This document shows positions 34,212 to 42,004 of a stretch of DNA of 64,000 nt, one piece after another. Every line of letters begins with the position of its first letter. Within the stretch, counting starts at the first letter, position 1. Below the pieces are notes generated by a model, which worked only from the letters and a program-made list of their open reading frames with translations, did no database searches and was not told the origin of the DNA. The position numbers and the translations under genes were made by a program. This stretch comes from an uncultured Chloroflexia bacterium (GTDB taxonomy: Bacteria > Chloroflexota > Limnocylindria > Limnocylindrales > CSP1-4), in assembly GCA_963778815.1 (NCBI GenBank), contig CAVZVS010000003.1, positions 72,895 through 136,894 of the forward strand, written 5' to 3'.

Positions 34212-37015
34212 ATGCCGACTCCTGCAGTCACCCTCGACCCCCGGATCAAGGCCCTGTCCGCCGCTGAGATCCGGCGGCGCTTCATCGCGTTCTTCGACGA
34301 ACGCGGTCACGAGGTCGTCCCGTCGGCAAGTCTGGTCCCGGCGGGGGACCAGACGTTCCTCTTCACGAACTCCGGGATGGTCCAGTTCAAGGAGGTCTTC
34401 ACCGGCGCCGAGACGCGCACGCTACAAGCGGGCGGTCGACGCTCAGCGCTGCCTGCGGGTGGCCGGCAAGCACAACGACTTCGAGGAGGTCGGCCGGACG
34501 CCTCGCCATCACACCCTGTTCGAGATGCTCGGCAACTGGAGCTTCGGCGACTACTTCAAGCGCGATGCGATCCACTGGGCGTGGAGCTTCCTGACCCAGG
34601 ACATGGGCATCCCGCCCGACCGCCTGGCGGCGACGACGTACACCGACGACCAGGTCGCCTGGGACATCTGGCGCGATGAGATCGGCCTGCCTCCGGAGCG
34701 GATGGCGCAAGTGGGGCGACGTCGACGCCGGTGACGACAAGAACTTCTGGCGGATGGCCGAGACCGGCCCATGTGGGCCCGTGCAGCGAGATCCACTTCG
34801 ATCGAGGGGCGGAGTTCTCGGAAGGCCCCCAGTGCGTGCCCGACCATGACGAAGCATTGCCCGCGCTGGGTCGAGATCTGGAACCTCGTCTTCATGGAGT
34901 TCGACCAGCGACCCGATGGTCGCCACCCGCTGCCGTTCACCAGCGTCGACACCGGCCTGGGCCTGGAGCGACTGGCGGCCGTCATGCAGCAGGTCCCCAC
35001 CAACTACGACACGGACCTGTTCACGCCGATCCACGCTCGCCTGCGCGAGCTGCTCGGGCACGATCCGGATGTCTTCGAGCAGGAGCGCTTCAGCTACCAG
35101 GTCATCGCCGACCACTCGCGAGCGATCACCTTCCTCATCGCCGACGGCGTGCTGCCCGCGAACGAGGGGCGCGGCTACGTCCTCCGTCGGATCCTCCGCC
35201 GGGCGGTCCGCCACGGGCGCATCCTCGGTCGCCGCGAGCCGTTCCTGGCCGAGCTGGCCGAGGTGGTCATCGAGCTGATGTCCGAGGCCTATCCGATCCT
35301 GGCCGAGCGCCGGTCCGAGGTCCTGGCGGCGATCGTCCGCGAGGAGGCCCAGTTCGCGCGGACCCTCGACGCCGGCACGATCCAGCTCGAGGAGGCGCTC
35401 ATCCCGCTGACCTCGAGCGCCGAGCGCCTGATCGGCCGTCGCGCCGAAGAGCTGCCCCGGCGACGCGCCGGTCCTCGGCGGCGAGGTCGCCTTCCGGCTC
35501 CACGATACGTACGGCTTCCCGGTCGACCTGACCGTCGAGCTGGCGGCCGAGTACGGGGTGGCCGTCGATCGGCCGGGCTTCGAGGCGGCCCTGGCCGAGC
35601 AACGCGCCCGGAGCCGGAGCGGGCGCAAGGCGGAGCTGTCCCAGCATGCCGAGCTGACCGCGTCTGTATCAGGCCATCCAGGCGCGCACCGGCGACAGCC
35701 GTCTTCAAGGGTTACGAGACCACCCGTCTCGACGACGCGACGGTGGTCGCGATCGTCCGCGACGGGCTCGAGTACCAGGAGCTCGAGGCGGTCGGCGACA
35801 CCGGCCTCGGGGCGCCGGCCGGAGCGACCGCCGAGATCGTCCTCGACCGGACCCCGTTCTATGCCGAGGGCGGTGGCCAGATCGGCGATCGGGGCGTCCT
35901 GTCGCTCGGCGGCGAGACGGTCTTCGAGGTCGAGGACACGCAACGACCGCTGGGCGGGCTGATCGTCCATCGGGGGACGCTGCGGGGCGGTCTGCGAGTC
36001 GGCCAGCAGGTCGTGGCCGAGGTCGATGCCGAACGGCGCGCCCGGACCATGCGTAACCATACGGGGACCCATCTCCTCCACCGAGCCCTGCGCAACGTGG
36101 TCGGGGAGCGTGCCCGCCAGGCCGGCTCGCTGGTCACGCCCGACTATCTGCGCTTCGACTTCCCGCTCGAGCGCGGCCTGACCGACGAGGAGCGCGGCGC
36201 GATCGAGGCCGAGGTCCGCCGGGTCATCCGCGACGATCGGCCGGTCACGCCCTCGTCGATGACGCATGCCCGAGGCGATCGAGGCCGGGGCCGATGCCTT
36301 CTTCGACGAGAAGTACGGCGAGACCGTACGGACCATCCGGGTCGAGGGCTACAGCCACGAGCTGTGCGGCGGCACCCACTGCCGGGCGTCGGGCCAGATC
36401 GGCGGCTTCGTCATCGTCGGCGAACGGAGCATCGGCAGCGGGATGCGCCGGATCGAGGCGCTGACCGGTGACGGCGCGGACAGCTTCCTGACCGGCCGGC
36501 TGGCGACCCTCGAACGAGCGAGCGACGCCGCTGGAGCGAACACCGTCGACGCCCTGCCCGAGCGGATCGCCGCCCTCCAGGACGAGCTGCGCGAGTCCAG
36601 GCGCCGACTCAAGGCCGCGGCGGCAGCGGGTGGGCTGCCCAAGCCGGCCGATCTGGTCGGGCGGACGGTCGAGCCGGCGGCCGGCGTCCGGCTGATCGCC
36701 TACGCCGGCCCGTTCGACTCGATGGATGCGCTCAAGAGCACGGCCAAGGACCTGCGCGGCCTGGTCCCCTCTGGCGTCCTCGCCCTTGGCCTTGAAGCTG
36801 ACGAGCCCCAGGTCTTCGTGACCGTCAGCCCGGATCTCGTCGCTCGGGGGATCGCCGCGGGCGACCTCGTCCGGGCTGCGGTCGGACCGATCGACGGCAA
36901 GGGCGGCGGTCGACCGGAGATGGCCCAGGGCAAGGGCACTCGGCGCGACGGTCTGCCGGCCGCCCTCGAGGCCATCTCGGCCGCCCTCGGCGCTTCGAAC
37001 GGAGCGTCTGGCTAG
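34212..37015 (+). CDS. alaS: Alanine--tRNA ligase (multiple frameshifts)
   Basis: Fragments: [96 protein letters not shown]. Confidence 0.95.
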
Positions 37016-38278
37016 ATGGCCTTCTGGCGTCGCCTCTGGCAGCGCGACGACCTGCCCGCCCTGGCGGCCTGTACCGCGCTCGACATCGGCACAGAATTCG
37101 CCAAGGCCCTCGTGTTCGAGATCGACGACCAGGGGATGGGCACGGTCCGGGGCGTCGGCCGCAAGCGCCAGGGCCTCTCCCACATGCAGTCCGGGACGGT
37201 GGCCGACATCGCGGCGGTCGTCGACAACTGCGCGGTCGCCCTCCAGGAGGCCGAGGAGATGGCCGGCTTCCGGCCGACCCAGGTCGTCATCGGGATCGCC
37301 GGTGAGCTGGTCAAGGGCTTCACCACGACCAACAGCCAGGAACGCAAGAAGCCCGACCAGCCGATCACCGAGGCGGAGCTCCAGAAGCTGATCGACGCGG
37401 TCCAGCAGGACGCCCTGCGCGAAGCCGAGCGGTCGATCACCTGGGAGACGGGCCTGCCCCACGTCGACGTGCGCCTGGTCCACGCGGCGATCACCTCGGC
37501 CAGCATCGACGGCTATGCGGTGACCAACCCGGTCGGCTTCCGCGGGCGCTACGTCAAGATCGGGATCTTCGATGCGTTCGCCCCGCTGGTCCACCTCGGG
37601 GCGCTCGAGAGCGTAGCCAGCCAGCTCGACCTGGAGCTTCTCGAGATCGTGGCCGAGCCCTACGCGGTCGCCCGCGTCCTCGGTGCGGAGCAGGTCCAGC
37701 AGGCGGGCGCCATCTTCATCGACATCGGCGGCGGCACGACCGACGTGGCCCTCGTCAGGCAGGGTGGCATCGAAGGGACCCGGATGTTCGCCCTGGGCGG
37801 ACGTGCCTTCACCAAGTCCATCGCCGACCGGCTCGACCTGCCCTTCCCGCGGGCCGAGGCACTCAAGGTCGACTACGCCCGGGGTCTGGCCGTCGACCGA
37901 CGCGACGAGGTCGAGGCCATCGTGACCGACGACGTGACGGTCTGGTCGGCCGGGGTCGAGCTGGTCATCGAGGAGCTCTCGGGCGGCGATCTGCTGCCCA
38001 GCCGGATCCATCTGTGCGGCGGCGGCTCGCGCCTGCCCGAGATCCTGGCCGCTCTCCAGGCCGAGCGGTTCTGGAAGCACCTGCCGTTCGCCCGGCGGCC
38101 CGAGGTCACGATCATGGCCCCCGACCAGGTGGCATCGATCGTCGACGCCACCCACCTGCTGGTCGACCAGCAGGACGTCACCCCGCTCGGGCTGGCCCAC
38201 CAGGCGATCGAACTCCAGTCGACCGATGACCCGCTGGATGCGGCCCTCCGGCGCGTCCTTCGGGCGATGAAGGTCTAG
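37016..38278 (+). CDS. FtsA-like actin-family ATPase
   Basis: ALDIGTE, IVAEPYA, FIDIGGGTTD, LGGRAFT..IA..L..AEALK, LCGGGSRLP. No ftsZ nearby. Confidence 0.85.
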   Translation: MAFWRRLWQRDDLPALAACTALDIGTEFAKALVFEIDDQGMGTVRGVGRKRQGLSHMQSGTVADIAAVVDNCAVALQEAEEMAGFRPTQVVIGIAGELVKGFTTTNSQERKKPDQPITEAELQKLIDAVQQDALREAERSITWETGLPHVDVRLVHAAITSASIDGYAVTNPVGFRGRYVKIGIFDAFAPLVHLGALESVASQLDLELLEIVAEPYAVARVLGAEQVQQAGAIFIDIGGGTTDVALVRQGGIEGTRMFALGGRAFTKSIADRLDLPFPRAEALKVDYARGLAVDRRDEVEAIVTDDVTVWSAGVELVIEELSGGDLLPSRIHLCGGGSRLPEILAALQAERFWKHLPFARRPEVTIMAPDQVASIVDATHLLVDQQDVTPLGLAHQAIELQSTDDPLDAALRRVLRAMKV

Positions 38279-38280
38279 CG

Positions 38281-40155
38281 ATGGCCTCGATCATCTATCT
38301 CGACGTCGATGACGAGATCACGACGGCGGCCGCCCGGATCCGGACGGCCACCGAGACCAAGGTCGCCCTCGTCCTGCCGCCGGGTTCTCGCCTGGCGACG
38401 TCGCGGATCAACTTCCGGCTCCTGTCACGCGAGGCGCTCGAGCGCAACCGGGTCCTGTCGATCGTGGCCGCAGACCCGGCCGCCAGGTCGATCGCCGCAT
38501 CGGCCGGGCTGCCCGTCCACGCCACGGTGGCCGAATTCGAAGCGGCCATCGCGCCGCCGGCCCCGAGCGCTCCCCCGACGCCGGTGCCGCCGGTCATCCC
38601 GATCGTGCCGCCCGCGTCGGTGGCGGCGGACGGTCCCGTCGCGGACCCGGCGCCCGGCGGGTCGGGCCGATCCCGTCGGCGGACGACCGCTGCGGCCGCC
38701 GGGCTCGCTGCGGTTGGCAGCGGGTCGCCTGGTGAGTCTGCCGATGCAGATGGCTCCAACCTCGAACTCGGCCTCGCGGTCGAGCCGGACGCTCCCCCCG
38801 AGACCAGCCTCCCACTCGCGCCGGCCGCGGCGTTCGTGCCCAGCGCACCGATCGTCGCACCCGCTGCCACGTCGCTGGAGATGCCGCCACCGGAGATGCG
38901 TGCCCGCTCGAGTGCGGCGACCGCGGCCGCCGTGCCGGGTACCGGCGCCGGTCGGAGCCTGCCCAGCGGCATCGTCGCCGTCGTCGGTTCGGTCCTGGTC
39001 ATCGCCGTGATCCTGGCCGTCATCGGCTACGTCGTCCTGCCGGCCGCCAGTGTTGTCGTGACGCCGGTGGCCGTGCCCATCGGACCGGTCGAGTTCGTGG
39101 TCCGAGCCGACCCCGATGCGACCACGGTCGACACCGACGGCGGGGTCATCCCGGCGACCCGGTTGAGCCAGGACTTCAGTGCCGCCGGCAAGTTCGACGC
39201 GACCGGCAAGAAGGTCGTCCAGAAGAAGGCCAGCGGCCAGGTCACCTTCACCAGTGAGAACACCTTCGTGCCGGTGACGGTGCCGGCCGGCACGAGCGTC
39301 CGGACCGGGTCGGGGGTCGCCTTCGTGACCACGGCCGACGTGACCATCCCGCGGGCATCGTTCGCGACCGGTCCCTCCCGCAAGAACGCTCCGATCACGG
39401 CGGTCCGGGCGGGCCCCGCCGGGAACGTGAACCCGGGCACGATCATCGTCGAGCCGAACGAGATCAAGGATCTCCTGGTCAGCGTGACCAACCGGCAGGC
39501 GACCGAAGGCGGCACCCGCGAGGAGTTCACCCAGATCTCCCAGAAGGACGTCGACGACGCGACGGCTCGACTGGCCAAGGACCTGGCGACCCAGTTCGAC
39601 GCCTGGGCGGCCGCTCCCGACGACCTGCCCAGCGGGACGACCGCGTTCCCCGCGACCGGTCATCTCGGCAGCCCGGTCGCCGAACCGGATCCGGCCGGTC
39701 TGGTCGGCCTCGAGCAGCCGACCTTCGACCTGGCCGCGACCGCGACCGGGACCGTCGTGGCGGTCGACACCGCAACGATCGATCAAGTGGCGGCCGGACG
39801 GATCGCGGCCAACGTCCCGGCCGAGCACGTCCTCAAGGACGGCTCGGTCACCTCCAAGAACGACGGCGGTCAGGCCGACGGCGACCTGGTCGACTTCCGG
39901 GTGACCGCCCGGGCGGAGGCGATCCCGGTCCTCGACGCGACCGCCCTGCGGGCCGCGATCAAGGGCAAGTCGGTGGCCGAGGCGCGGCGCATCCTGGAGC
40001 GCTACGGGACCGTCGCGATCGACACCTGGCCGGGCTTCGTGTCATCGATCCCGACCCTCGACGCCCGGCTCGACCTGACCGTGACCGGGATCGCCGGTGC
40101 CCCCAGCGCCCCGTCTGCGACACCGACGGTCGCACCCTCGAGCAGCGCTCCATGA
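38281..40155 (+). CDS. Bitopic membrane protein with baseplate J/gp47-like external domain
   Basis: N-terminal IYLDVDDEIT domain, Pro/Ala linker, TM, then KASGQVTF, VPAGTSV, AGPAGNV..GTI, VTN..ATEGG. Confidence 0.7.
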   Translation: MASIIYLDVDDEITTAAARIRTATETKVALVLPPGSRLATSRINFRLLSREALERNRVLSIVAADPAARSIAASAGLPVHATVAEFEAAIAPPAPSAPPTPVPPVIPIVPPASVAADGPVADPAPGGSGRSRRRTTAAAAGLAAVGSGSPGESADADGSNLELGLAVEPDAPPETSLPLAPAAAFVPSAPIVAPAATSLEMPPPEMRARSSAATAAAVPGTGAGRSLPSGIVAVVGSVLVIAVILAVIGYVVLPAASVVVTPVAVPIGPVEFVVRADPDATTVDTDGGVIPATRLSQDFSAAGKFDATGKKVVQKKASGQVTFTSENTFVPVTVPAGTSVRTGSGVAFVTTADVTIPRASFATGPSRKNAPITAVRAGPAGNVNPGTIIVEPNEIKDLLVSVTNRQATEGGTREEFTQISQKDVDDATARLAKDLATQFDAWAAAPDDLPSGTTAFPATGHLGSPVAEPDPAGLVGLEQPTFDLAATATGTVVAVDTATIDQVAAGRIAANVPAEHVLKDGSVTSKNDGGQADGDLVDFRVTARAEAIPVLDATALRAAIKGKSVAEARRILERYGTVAIDTWPGFVSSIPTLDARLDLTVTGIAGAPSAPSATPTVAPSSSAP

Positions 40156-40613
40156 GCCGGATCCTGGGCATCGACCTGGGCGAGAAGCGGATCGGGATCG
40201 CCGTGGCTGATGCCGACGGGGCGGCGGTACCGTTGACCACGCTCCGCCGTGCCCGGGATGTGGCCGGGGACGCCGAGGCGATCGTCCGGCTCGCGACCGA
40301 GCACGGCGCGCTCGAACTCGTCGTCGGGCTGCCGCTTGAGGCGTCCGGTGAGAACGGGCCCCAGGCCAACGTCACGCGAGCGTGGGTCGAGTCCGTCTCA
40401 CCCCTCGTGCGCCTGCCGGTCACGCTCCGCGACGAGCGTCTTTCCAGTCACCTGGCCGAACAACGCCTGGGCCCGATGAAACGCGGTCGCTCGGGCGGGC
40501 CGCCCAGCGCTACCCAGCGCGACGCGTACCGCGCCCGGGTCGATCGCGAGGCCGCTTCGATCATCCTCCAGGACGAGCTCGACGCCCGAGCTCGGGCCGG
40601 GGCCGAGCGATGA
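40152..40613 (+). CDS. ruvX: RuvX/YqgF nuclease
   Basis: ILGIDLGEKRIGIA, VVGLP, DERLSS, VD..AA.IILQ. Confidence 0.92.
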   Translation: MSRILGIDLGEKRIGIAVADADGAAVPLTTLRRARDVAGDAEAIVRLATEHGALELVVGLPLEASGENGPQANVTRAWVESVSPLVRLPVTLRDERLSSHLAEQRLGPMKRGRSGGPPSATQRDAYRARVDREAASIILQDELDARARAGAER

Positions 40614-42004
40614 CCATCCGCGGGGGTGGCCGGCCACGGGACAGCCAGGCGTACGGTCTGGCCGATGTCGACATCGACGACGAGCACTACGCCCGAGCCC
40701 CGGAGCCCAGCGTCAGCAGCTCACGACGTGGCTGGCGGTCGGGCGACCCGCCGCGGGCGGGCGGCCGTCCGCCGCAGGCGCCTAGGGTCGGCGGTGGCTT
40801 CGGCTTCGGTGGACTGCTGCGCCTCCTGGCGTTCATGTTCGTCCTGGCCGGGATCGTCCTCATCGTCTCGTTGACCGTGCTCCGCCCGGTCGTCGCCGGT
40901 GCCGTCGTCGACTGGGCGGCGGAGAACCCGAGCGCGCTCCGGCTGCCCTTCGTCGAGGCTCTCGTCCGAGAGGATCTGGGACCCGCCCTGACCGATGCCC
41001 CCGGGACGGATCCGACCCAGGTCGAGTTCACCGTTGCCGACGGCGACACGGCCGGGATCATCGCCGCTCGCCTGGCCGATCAGGGCTTCGTCCGGGACGC
41101 CCGCTCGTTCGTGTTCATCTCGTCCGAACGTGACCTGGCCGACAAGCTCGAGGCCGGCACCTACCTCCTGCGCAAGGACATGACCCCGGACCAACTGGTG
41201 ACCGCGCTCCTGGTCTCGCACGATCTGGCCGTCACGGTTCCCCTTCGCGAAGGCCTTCGGCTGGAGCAGGTCACCGCCAAGCTGCTGACCCTGCCGCTCA
41301 AGATGGACGTCAAGGAGTTCTACAACGAGGCGATCCATCCGCCCAAGAGCCTGCTGGCCGACTATCCCTGGCTGGACCTGCCCAAGGGAGCCTCGCTCGA
41401 GGGCTTCCTCGCCCCGGCGACCTATCGGGTCCTGCCCGACATCACCCCGGATGCACTCATCCGGCAGATGCTCGACCGCTTTTACGCCACGGTGGGACCG
41501 GACCGGTTGAAGGTGGCCAAGGACCGCGGGATGTCGTTCTATGAGGTCCTCACGCTGGCCTCGCTGGTCGAGCGCGAGGCCTTCCTCGACGAGGAGCGGC
41601 CGCAGATCGCCGGGGTCTACCAGAACCGCCTCGCGCCCCATACCGAGACGGCCGGCTTCCTCGGTTCAGACCCGTCGATCTTCTACCTGTATGACTCGCT
41701 CCAGCTGGCCGACCTGCCGCTGGCCAAGTGGGCCGACTACACCTTCTGGGCGCCGCACAAGGATGGCCTCACCGGTCTGACCATCCCGCCGGCGCTGGCG
41801 GGCTACAACACCTACACCAGCAAGGGTCTGCCGCCCGGTCCCATCGCCACCCCGACGGTCCCGTCGATCGACGCCGCGCTCGATCCGGACACCAAGGGTG
41901 GCTACCTGTACTTCGTGGCCAAGAACGACGGGTCGAACACGACGGCCTTCGCCAAGACCTACAAGGAGCACCAGGCCAACCTGAAGAAGTACGGCTACCG
42001 GTGA
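40610..42004 (+). CDS. mltG: Endolytic transglycosylase MltG
   Basis: TM, REGLRLEQ, LEGFLAPATY, LASLVEREA, VYQNRL, YNTY..GLPPGPI, YLYFVA. Confidence 0.92.
   Translation: MTIRGGGRPRDSQAYGLADVDIDDEHYARAPEPSVSSSRRGWRSGDPPRAGGRPPQAPRVGGGFGFGGLLRLLAFMFVLAGIVLIVSLTVLRPVVAGAVVDWAAENPSALRLPFVEALVREDLGPALTDAPGTDPTQVEFTVADGDTAGIIAARLADQGFVRDARSFVFISSERDLADKLEAGTYLLRKDMTPDQLVTALLVSHDLAVTVPLREGLRLEQVTAKLLTLPLKMDVKEFYNEAIHPPKSLLADYPWLDLPKGASLEGFLAPATYRVLPDITPDALIRQMLDRFYATVGPDRLKVAKDRGMSFYEVLTLASLVEREAFLDEERPQIAGVYQNRLAPHTETAGFLGSDPSIFYLYDSLQLADLPLAKWADYTFWAPHKDGLTGLTIPPALAGYNTYTSKGLPPGPIATPTVPSIDAALDPDTKGGYLYFVAKNDGSNTTAFAKTYKEHQANLKKYGYR

Follow-up and report, generated by a model that had tools for sequence, protein, structure and literature searches.

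What might an FtsA-like ATPase do when its gene lies away from ftsZ and is coupled to the gene of a membrane protein with a phage-baseplate-like domain? The question is raised by two adjacent genes of an uncultured Chloroflexia bacterium (Chloroflexota; Limnocylindrales), at positions 37,016 through 40,155 of a 64,000-nucleotide (nt) stretch of DNA, herein the window (contig CAVZVS010000003.1, positions 72,895 through 136,894, forward strand; assembly GCA_963778815.1). Both open reading frames (ORFs) are intact; the first encodes the ATPase (420 residues) and the second a 624-residue protein with one predicted membrane-spanning helix (herein the partner). A preliminary description had read the two as a domesticated trans-envelope module outside any phage or ftsZ context, and had mentioned similar pairs in Chloroflexota and Patescibacteria. 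To judge from its sequence, the ATPase is an old FtsA paralog with intact nucleotide-binding motifs and not the FtsA of the divisome. Sequence comparison likewise indicates that the pair is common to two phyla, Chloroflexota and Patescibacteria (Saccharimonadia).

The ATPase and its relation to FtsA

The translation of the ATPase gene carries the motifs LDIGTE, DIGGGTTD, and GGGS, which were already recognized as intact in the preliminary description, and the phosphate and adenosine positions (D23, G25, and T26; D236, G238 through T242, and D243; G335 and G336) are invariant in 16 orthologs. FtsA is the best family match. The Pfam FtsA model (PF14450) scores 55.8 bits, and the closest solved sequences are FtsA proteins (phmmer, E = 1e-13), in an alignment that spans the region of subdomain 1C. 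Against the FtsA equivalog model TIGR01174 the protein reaches 107.6 bits, below the cutoff of 175.85, and covers only profile positions 3 through 258 of 371; it also stays below the cutoffs for PilM (TIGR01175, 29.8 versus 133 bits), EutJ (47.5 versus 182 bits), and MreB (TIGR00904, 25.4 versus 365.75 bits). An AlphaFold model built from the 16 orthologs (predicted local distance difference test [pLDDT], 85.5) superposes on Vibrio FtsA (Protein Data Bank [PDB]: 7q6f) with Z = 39.9 and a root-mean-square deviation (rmsd) of 2.7 over 352 of 382 residues, and it has the FtsA-type actin fold, with subdomain 1C in place of 1B. Matches to PilM (2ych, Z = 32.6; 3jc8, Z = 32.4), EutJ (Z = 26.1), and MreB (Z of ∼24.5) score lower.

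Both ends of the ATPase (MAFWRRLW at the N terminus and LDAALRRVLRAMKV at the C terminus) had been thought possibly amphipathic. This held for the C terminus, where the hydrophobic moment of the last 14 residues falls in the top 0 to 5% of each protein's windows in 16/16 orthologs; the N-terminal helix is less consistent. The C-terminal helix would seat the ATPase on the inner face of the membrane, and by analogy with FtsA the protein probably polymerizes.

An ortholog is present in all 18 genomes of the same genus (86 to 97% identity; the copy in one of them, G007, is in pieces), and for most of these genomes a second FtsA-like ORF with 23 to 25% identity is listed. In the congener G006 the second ORF scores 412.7 bits against TIGR01174 and adjoins an ORF that matches the FtsZ model (419.7 bits); a weak FtsQ-like ORF (50.2 bits) lies at the same locus, where further ORFs resemble ddl, murC, murG, and ftsW, by eye only. 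Three genomes from other families likewise hold a canonical FtsA with the pair, and the TIGR01174 scores of the two proteins are far apart (450.2 versus 93.8 bits in G167, 449.4 versus 95.2 in G141, and 424.8 versus 98.3 in G047). As a true FtsA thus coexists with the pair in all four Chloroflexota genomes checked, the idea that the ATPase is simply the sole canonical FtsA was rejected for this phylum. In a quick maximum-likelihood tree of 39 sequences, 28 orthologs of the ATPase split from 6 FtsA and 5 MreB proteins with a Shimodaira–Hasegawa-like approximate likelihood ratio test (SH-aLRT) value of 99; the long branches of L138 and L139 are unreliable in this quick search. Neither ftsZ nor ftsQ adjoins the ATPase gene in any of the 180 loci examined, consistent with the context first described.

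The window's own assembly (2.28 Mb, seven contigs) is 66.5% complete, so that finding neither FtsZ nor canonical FtsA in it is uninformative. Two MreB-type genes lie elsewhere in this genome (loci L002 and L003), one of them followed by an ORF that is MreC-like by eye only; a rod system therefore exists beside the FtsA-like pair.

The partner protein and the predicted complex

The partner was modeled from 20 homologs (pLDDT 79.3). The model comprises a compact head (residues 1 through 95, pLDDT of ∼95), a disordered stretch (residues 103 through 228, pLDDT <50), a helix (residues 229 through 251), an ectodomain (residues 255 through 603, pLDDT mostly >90), and a disordered tail. The order that had been read from the ORF, namely a compact N-terminal domain, a Pro/Ala linker, one transmembrane helix, and a baseplate-J-like domain, is borne out by the ORFs, the model, and the Pfam match below, and it is kept in 20/20 aligned homologs, down to 24% identity. 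The linker varies in length and sequence and is unconserved in the alignment; the transmembrane stretch is hydrophobic in every aligned homolog. Arg residues ahead of the helix suggest that the N terminus faces the cytoplasm.

Similarity to phage proteins is concentrated in one β-barrel of the ectodomain. Baseplate_J (PF04865) matches residues 316 through 415 with 39.5 bits (cutoff 21.1), over profile positions 22 through 113 of 255 only, and this stretch also gives 60.5 bits against phrog_6 ("baseplate wedge subunit"). Using VIA-align, the 108-residue barrel (residues 310 through 417) superposes on a baseplate protein of phiCD508 (9gb2_G) with Z = 14.5 and an rmsd of 2.2 Å over 98 residues at 30% identity, and on proteins of cyanophage A-1(L) (8kea_b, Z = 14.4), Mu (9ki1_H, Z = 12.4), and T4 (gp6, 5iv5_B, Z = 9.5); these best matches to the baseplate J, gp47, and gp6 wedge proteins range over 2.2 to 3.3 Å and 22 to 30% identity. 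Foldseek aligns the ectodomain with wedge proteins over ∼340 columns (E = 4.8e-9), at a template-modeling score of only 0.23 to 0.26 and a very large rmsd, and VIA-align superposes only the barrel well. The whole ectodomain may have its domains in common with wedge proteins, differently arranged, but the match is firm for the barrel only. The structural resemblance to baseplate J that had been suspected is thus present, by Foldseek, VIA-align, and phrog_6 alike; unlike wedge proteins, the partner is membrane anchored, has a cytoplasmic head, and is encoded outside a tail gene cluster.

The same barrel (PF21110) occurs in GlxA of Streptomyces lividans (4unm and 5lqi), with Z = 13.1 to 13.6 (5lqi_A, 13.6) and 24% identity. 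GlxA is a nonphage envelope protein, called "secreted protein" in the PDB titles, so barrels of this type also exist outside phage tails. It differs from the partner in being a radical copper oxidase with a propeller domain; the partner scores 15.1 bits against NF052501, which has a cutoff of 800. Descent between the cellular and phage forms could have run in either direction. Genomes of family f24 contain two or three partner-like ORFs (∼840 to 1070 residues; e.g., G141:C1:313719-314822 and G141:C1:2348006-2349364), which points to paralogs of the partner there.

No Pfam or NCBIfam family matches the head (residues 1 through 95). Its size and α/β topology resemble those of STAS domains and anti-sigma-factor antagonists (SpoIIAA, 1h4y; RsbR/S, 7b0u; SLC26 STAS), with Z = 8.4 to 7.0 over ∼90 aligned residues, a borderline level. 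Unlike these systems, the operon encodes no kinase or sigma partner.

To model the complex, the ATPase alignment was paired with that of head residues 1 through 100, using our own alignments and three controls. The prediction supports binding of the head by the ATPase: the interface score ipSAE is 0.67 (runs: 0.67, 0.73, and 0.64) versus 0.00 for the best of the three controls. Agreement between runs is 94% or higher for the contacts, and the pLDDT of the partner reaches 86 or more. The mark that the complex passes is reached by 58/80 solved complexes and 2/110 mismatched pairs, a calibration that is only rough here, where our own alignments were used. An ATPase–partner interface, as the preliminary description had supposed, is therefore predicted with clean controls.

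On the head, the predicted contacts comprise 24 residues (10 through 15, 17, 18, 21, 37, 40 through 44, 46, 47, 50, 51, 66, 67, 70, 71, and 74). Ten of them (D11, E12, I13, T14, S41, N44, R46, L47, R50, and S74) are among the 21 conserved positions of the head, where 5.3 would be expected (hypergeometric p = 0.010). On the ATPase, the contacts are residues 54, 58, 59, 97, 143 through 147, 258 through 272, and 305 through 317, and the predicted site lies on helices 262 through 272 and 296 through 322. These helices we take to correspond to subdomain 2B, the docking site of the FtsZ tail on FtsA (4A2A).

A search for longer proteins returned 17, of which two (P0424 and P0431) hold both FtsA and Baseplate_J matches and most others run into AlaS or RuvX. 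The two fusions are assembly singletons and possible indel artifacts across the 2-nt gap between the genes; as proof of interaction they were given no weight.

Occurrence and gene order in two phyla

A pattern scan for Limnocylindria-type loci, with one genome per species, yielded 362 loci, and the best 80 were examined. All are titled as Chloroflexota-type metagenome-assembled genomes. The ATPase gene lies directly upstream of the partner gene on the same strand in 79/80, the remaining sequence beginning at the partner; downstream of the partner come ruvX in 79/80 and mltG in 78/80, and the end of alaS lies upstream in 76/80. Among the six segments compared, the ATPase is the most conserved in 75/75 complete loci: median identity to the window is 83% for the ATPase, 67% for both the AlaS C terminus and the partner head, 63% for RuvX, 55% for MltG, and 42% for the partner ectodomain. 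Among 1.84 billion representatives, 13,218 relatives of the partner were detected by a profile search with a threshold of E = 1e-3, and 4,685 with one of E = 1e-30; near-identical proteins are labeled Chloroflexota or Candidatus Limnocylindrales by their sources.

The phylum was surveyed in an even sample of 401 Chloroflexota genomes (322 of high quality), with a threshold of E = 1e-60 for the ATPase. MltG is found in 352 genomes (277 of high quality), the partner in 269 (220), and the ATPase ortholog in 120 (97). These tallies include genomes flagged as unpublished (G068, G300, G256, G202, and G371 for the partner; G202, G300, and G371 for the ATPase; G174, G068, G371, G202, and G256 for MltG), and no claim hangs on a single one of them. 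Across 30 tallied families, the ATPase is confined to those with the partner (f1, f3, f6, f8, f15, f18, f22, f23, f24, and f27), and none has the partner but no MltG. Three families without MltG (f12, f20, and f30; 11 genomes) also lack the partner and the ATPase.

In 20 diverse loci from other Chloroflexota families, the partner lies ahead of ruvX in 19 and ahead of mltG in all 20; 17 have a detected alaS upstream. Twelve of these loci have the ATPase in its usual position (nine at 46 to 56% identity and three divergent), and it is absent from eight (L133 through L136, L141 through L143, and L145), where the partner alone lies between alaS and ruvX.

The second phylum emerged from a metagenome scan seeded with three distant partner homologs, which gave 80 loci of low G+C content (36 to 56%). 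The ATPase gene is adjacent to the partner in 75 of them; four sequences leave no room for it. After the partner, ruvX follows in 76 loci (no room in three, absent in one), and mltG is present in 65 (no room in 14, absent in one). The sole rearranged case among the 80 is L150, in which 3 kb separate the partner from an upstream ATPase gene and the partner is followed by neither ruvX nor mltG. A name look-up for ten sequences from seven of these loci found seven (six ATPases and one partner), and the found sequences or members of their clusters are labeled Candidatus Nanosynbacter, Saccharimonadaceae, or Saccharimonadales by their sources. The earlier statement that such pairs occur in both Chloroflexota and Patescibacteria has thereby been substantiated, and adjacency in 79/80, 12/20, and 75/80 loci establishes that the pair is conserved beyond the window.

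The window and Nanosynbacter ATPases share 46% identity, and the partners ∼30% in head and barrel. In the quick tree, 10 Saccharimonadia-type ATPases group together (SH-aLRT 99) within Chloroflexota sequences that themselves form an unresolved comb, a pattern compatible with vertical descent and with transfer between the two phyla alike. Three side observations concern this set. One of the clusters also contains Moranbacteria and archaeon bin labels. In L164, a 420-residue ATPase and a 543-residue partner share a single 90%-identity cluster of 3649 members, and a read-through ORF may link them. As leads only, look-alikes in the ESM Atlas come from Chloroflexota and Saccharimonadota, plus Peregrinibacteriota for the ATPase.

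Two further proteins (P0428 and P0430; 791 and 792 residues) join a Ser/Thr Pkinase domain (residues 12 through 258) to an ATPase ortholog (48 to 50% identity, 95% coverage); one is labeled Ktedonobacteraceae by its source. Together with the STAS-like head and the invariant T14 and S41, the fusion suggests, as a lead only, that the pair is controlled by phosphorylation. Hanks kinases act in Gram-positive division, which makes the fusion fit a regulated role in division or wall growth.

In the window, the genes run in the order alaS, ATPase, partner, ruvX, and mltG (Table 1), packed as tightly as first described. The stop codon of alaS (TAG) directly abuts the ATG of the ATPase gene (0 nt), and the ATPase and partner genes are separated by 2 nt (CG). 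The partner stop and ruvX start share an ATGA, as do the ruvX stop and the mltG ATG at 40610.

Table 1. Features of the locus, with positions in the window
Feature	Positions	Strand	Basis
alaS, alanyl-tRNA synthetase	34212..37015	+	tblastn of intact congener AlaS; at least three frames in this assembly
FtsA-family actin-fold ATPase, 420 residues	37016..38278	+	Pfam, NCBIfam, AlphaFold model, tree
ATPase C-terminal amphipathic helix, residues 406 through 418; candidate membrane-targeting helix	38231..38269	+	Model and hydrophobic moment
Bitopic partner, 624 residues	38281..40155	+	Pfam, alignment, model
Partner cytoplasmic α/β head, residues 1 through 95	38281..38565	+	Model, structure matches, predicted ATPase-binding face
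Partner Pro/Ala-rich disordered linker, residues 96 through 228	38566..38964	+	pLDDT, alignment
Partner single transmembrane helix, residues 229 through 251	38965..39033	+	Model, hydrophobicity across homologs
Partner extracytoplasmic multidomain region, residues 255 through 603	39043..40089	+	Model, Foldseek
Partner Baseplate-J-type β-barrel, residues 310 through 417	39208..39531	+	PF04865, phrog_6, VIA-align
ruvX (YqgF-type nuclease)	40152..40613	+	PF03652, 97.6 bits
mltG (YceG-family lytic transglycosylase)	40610..42004	+	PF02618, 221.9 bits; likely start ATG 40610

The alaS gene is broken into pieces at 34212 through 34427 (frame 3), 34423 through 36264 (frame 1; 70% identity only), and 36266 through 37012 (frame 2); Pfam places the C-terminal domains tRNA_SAD and DHHA1 in 36266 through 37015. 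The gene is intact in the congener G006 (930 residues). Given an assembly of 66.5% completeness in seven contigs, assembly indels are likelier than a pseudogene. Genes for an M24 peptidase, EF-P, and XseA lie downstream of mltG (Pfam). Between the M24 peptidase gene and efp, an 80-residue ORF (43258 through 43500) encodes a SHOCT domain (30.8 bits) along with a single hydrophobic segment. The G+C content is 67 to 74% over the whole window.

Possible functions of the pair

Our favored reading, to which we give about an even chance of being right, is that the two proteins serve envelope growth or division as a scaffold and adaptor that spans the membrane. The ATPase would be anchored to the cytoplasmic side of the membrane by the amphipathic helix at its C terminus, form an FtsA-like polymer, and grip the partner, a single-pass protein, by its STAS-like head. 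The state of the cytoplasmic filament would in this way be coupled to the position or clustering of the outer, baseplate-wedge-like domain, and the pair would organize growth of the cell wall and envelope, or septation, in parallel with the classical systems built on MreB and FtsA, working after the manner of MreB–RodZ, FtsA–FtsN, or PilM–PilN. A wall, envelope, or septation role appears likeliest because the pair is translationally coupled, in two phyla, to ruvX and to mltG, the gene of a glycan-strand terminase. The fixed place by mltG, the strong constraint on the ATPase, and the nesting of ATPase lineages within partner lineages and of these within MltG lineages argue for a single envelope complex.

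RodZ has a folded cytoplasmic N-terminal domain, a linker, a transmembrane helix, and an outer β-rich domain. MreB–RodZ (2wus) resembles the pair in joining an actin-like filament protein to a bitopic adaptor linked to wall growth; it differs in that the ATPase here is FtsA-like by both fold and profile, and in that the partner head is modeled as β-α repeats and matches STAS-type folds rather than the helix-turn-helix that binds MreB.

Several observations weigh against the scaffold-and-adaptor reading. The link to MltG is one of gene order, and MltG occurs without the partner in six families (f2, f7, f9, f17, f26, and f28), which makes the absence of the pair from families without MltG a weak test with wall-less lineages. 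The STAS likeness of the head sits at a Z level that the tool calls common. On the ATPase, conserved positions are no commoner within the predicted interface than expected by chance (5/26 versus 6.6 expected, p = 0.84). The main unexplained fact is the existence of partner-only lineages: 7/30 tallied families (f4, f10, f13, f14, f16, f19, and f21) have the partner without the ATPase, and a genome-wide search of eight partner-only genomes found no ATPase ortholog, the best profile scores being 53 to 72 bits versus >250 for orthologs. The partner, found without the ATPase in so many families, is thus not dependent on it. Most partner-only proteins keep the head, with drifted DDEIT and S-x-x-N-x-R-L motifs (that of L133 is headless), so the head cannot exist solely for binding the ATPase and may serve another binder too.

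Best placed among the alternatives, and in our view unlikely, is a second divisome FtsA that tethers FtsZ and is possibly the main FtsA in Saccharimonadia, with the partner acting late in the divisome as a bitopic protein of the FtsN or FtsQ kind. FtsA, including its subdomain 1C, is the best match in fold and family, and FtsA–FtsN (7q6i) and FtsA with the FtsZ tail (4a2a) share with the pair the actin fold (Z = 39.5 to 39.9), the C-terminal amphipathic helix, and the matching of a cytoplasmic ATPase to a single-pass membrane protein. In a preprint on the TM7x transcriptome, "ftsA" and ftsZ carry distant locus tags, and the annotated TM7x ftsA might be the ATPase gene. Unlike a divisome FtsA, however, the ATPase is ∼23 to 24% identical to canonical FtsA, falls far below the equivalog cutoff, and coexists with a true FtsA in the four Chloroflexota genomes noted above. 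Its gene does not lie in a division and cell wall (dcw) cluster with ftsQ or ftsZ; its neighbors are alaS and the partner gene, in the window and in the three sets of loci. The partner offers a folded 95-residue head and a baseplate-like ectodomain where FtsA partners offer a short peptide, and if the predicted head site corresponds to the one that the FtsZ tail occupies on FtsA, head and tail would compete for it.

A platform like PilM–PilN, at the inner-membrane base of a surface fiber or of a secretion or uptake machine, seems to us quite improbable. PilM is the second-best fold match, an actin-like protein followed by a bitopic protein with a cytoplasmic N terminus is the gene order of pilM and pilN (2ych and 5eou for the proteins), and Saccharibacteria reportedly need pili. 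The PilM family score, by contrast, is far below its cutoff, the neighbors are alaS, ruvX, and mltG and not pilO, pilP, pilQ, or pilin genes, and the partner is far larger than PilN, of another fold, with a folded domain in place of a short N-terminal peptide. A role as a pilus part was rejected on the ground that no PilM family match (E = 1e-10) was found in five Chloroflexota genomes, three of which have the pair.

It is more doubtful still that the two genes are neighbors without a joint function, the partner being an envelope protein of the ruvX–mltG operon and the ATPase an insertion beside it that acts elsewhere. The partner-only families and genomes, and the lack of special conservation on the ATPase side of the interface, speak for this. 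They are countered by the lack of any tallied family with the ATPase and no partner, by adjacency in nearly all loci of two phyla, and by a complex prediction that passes against blank controls and places conserved polar residues of the head in the interface.

We give hardly any credence to the idea that the pair derives, as a remnant or by domestication, from a contractile tail or an injection system, or that it is an antiphage defense pair, since the matches of the ectodomain to Baseplate_J, phrog_6, and wedge structures are firm for one barrel that Streptomyces GlxA also has, the partner is the single Baseplate_J match in its own 66.5%-complete assembly with no tail genes nearby, PADLOC returned no hit for either protein (on which ground a defense system was rejected), and a fixed housekeeping-operon slot in two phyla is unlike mobile or defense genes.

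Taken together, the interpretation in the preliminary description is partly supported. A trans-envelope module in which the ATPase is matched to a bitopic partner is predicted here as well; "domesticated" stays conjectural, the barrel being the one firmly shared domain and GlxA having it too. A part in division, wall synthesis, or surface scaffolding, as proposed there, we also infer.

We found no publication on the ATPase–partner pair in the literature looked at (FtsA-like proteins with baseplate J, Limnocylindria, Saccharibacteria, and Patescibacteria). The passages found on Limnocylindria and FtsA concern dcw markers only, those on Patescibacteria division do not describe the pair, and "baseplate J" is absent from the papers listed for the phylum names. 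The main text of a transposon sequencing (Tn-seq) paper on Southlakia does not contain "FtsA," "MltG," or "baseplate"; the supplementary Tn-seq tables of PMC10633639 may bear on essentiality. The genes of the pair carry source names such as "cell division protein FtsA," "rod shape-determining protein," and "baseplate J/gp47 family protein," and these labels give a wrong picture when division machinery is inferred from genomes.

Current explanations of how bacteria take shape and divide invoke two actin-like systems: MreB with RodZ, and FtsA with FtsZ and FtsN. A bolder version of the scaffold-and-adaptor reading, which we consider rather unlikely, would add a third: an ancient actin-like envelope cytoskeleton, already present in the ancestor shared by Chloroflexota and Patescibacteria, with a filament that arrays a baseplate-wedge-like ring or lattice on the surface, which guides wall growth or septation with MltG. 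If that were true, the ectodomain could be related to the lineage that gave rise to the wedge proteins of tail baseplates, or be an extremely early capture of one, and the pair may be indispensable in the tiny Saccharibacteria.

What is new here is a further branch of the FtsA family, under stronger constraint than the surrounding housekeeping genes, with a dedicated partner of new domain makeup. The "baseplate J" barrel becomes a domain of the cellular envelope as well as of phages. The pair has its fixed place by a wall enzyme gene, mltG, both in Chloroflexota, a phylum with large populations in soil and water, and in the Saccharimonadia, the group within the Candidate Phyla Radiation that is amenable to genetics. 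Should it organize envelope growth, it would be a new bacterial cytoskeleton module and offer a handle on how ultra-small epibionts build their envelope and divide.

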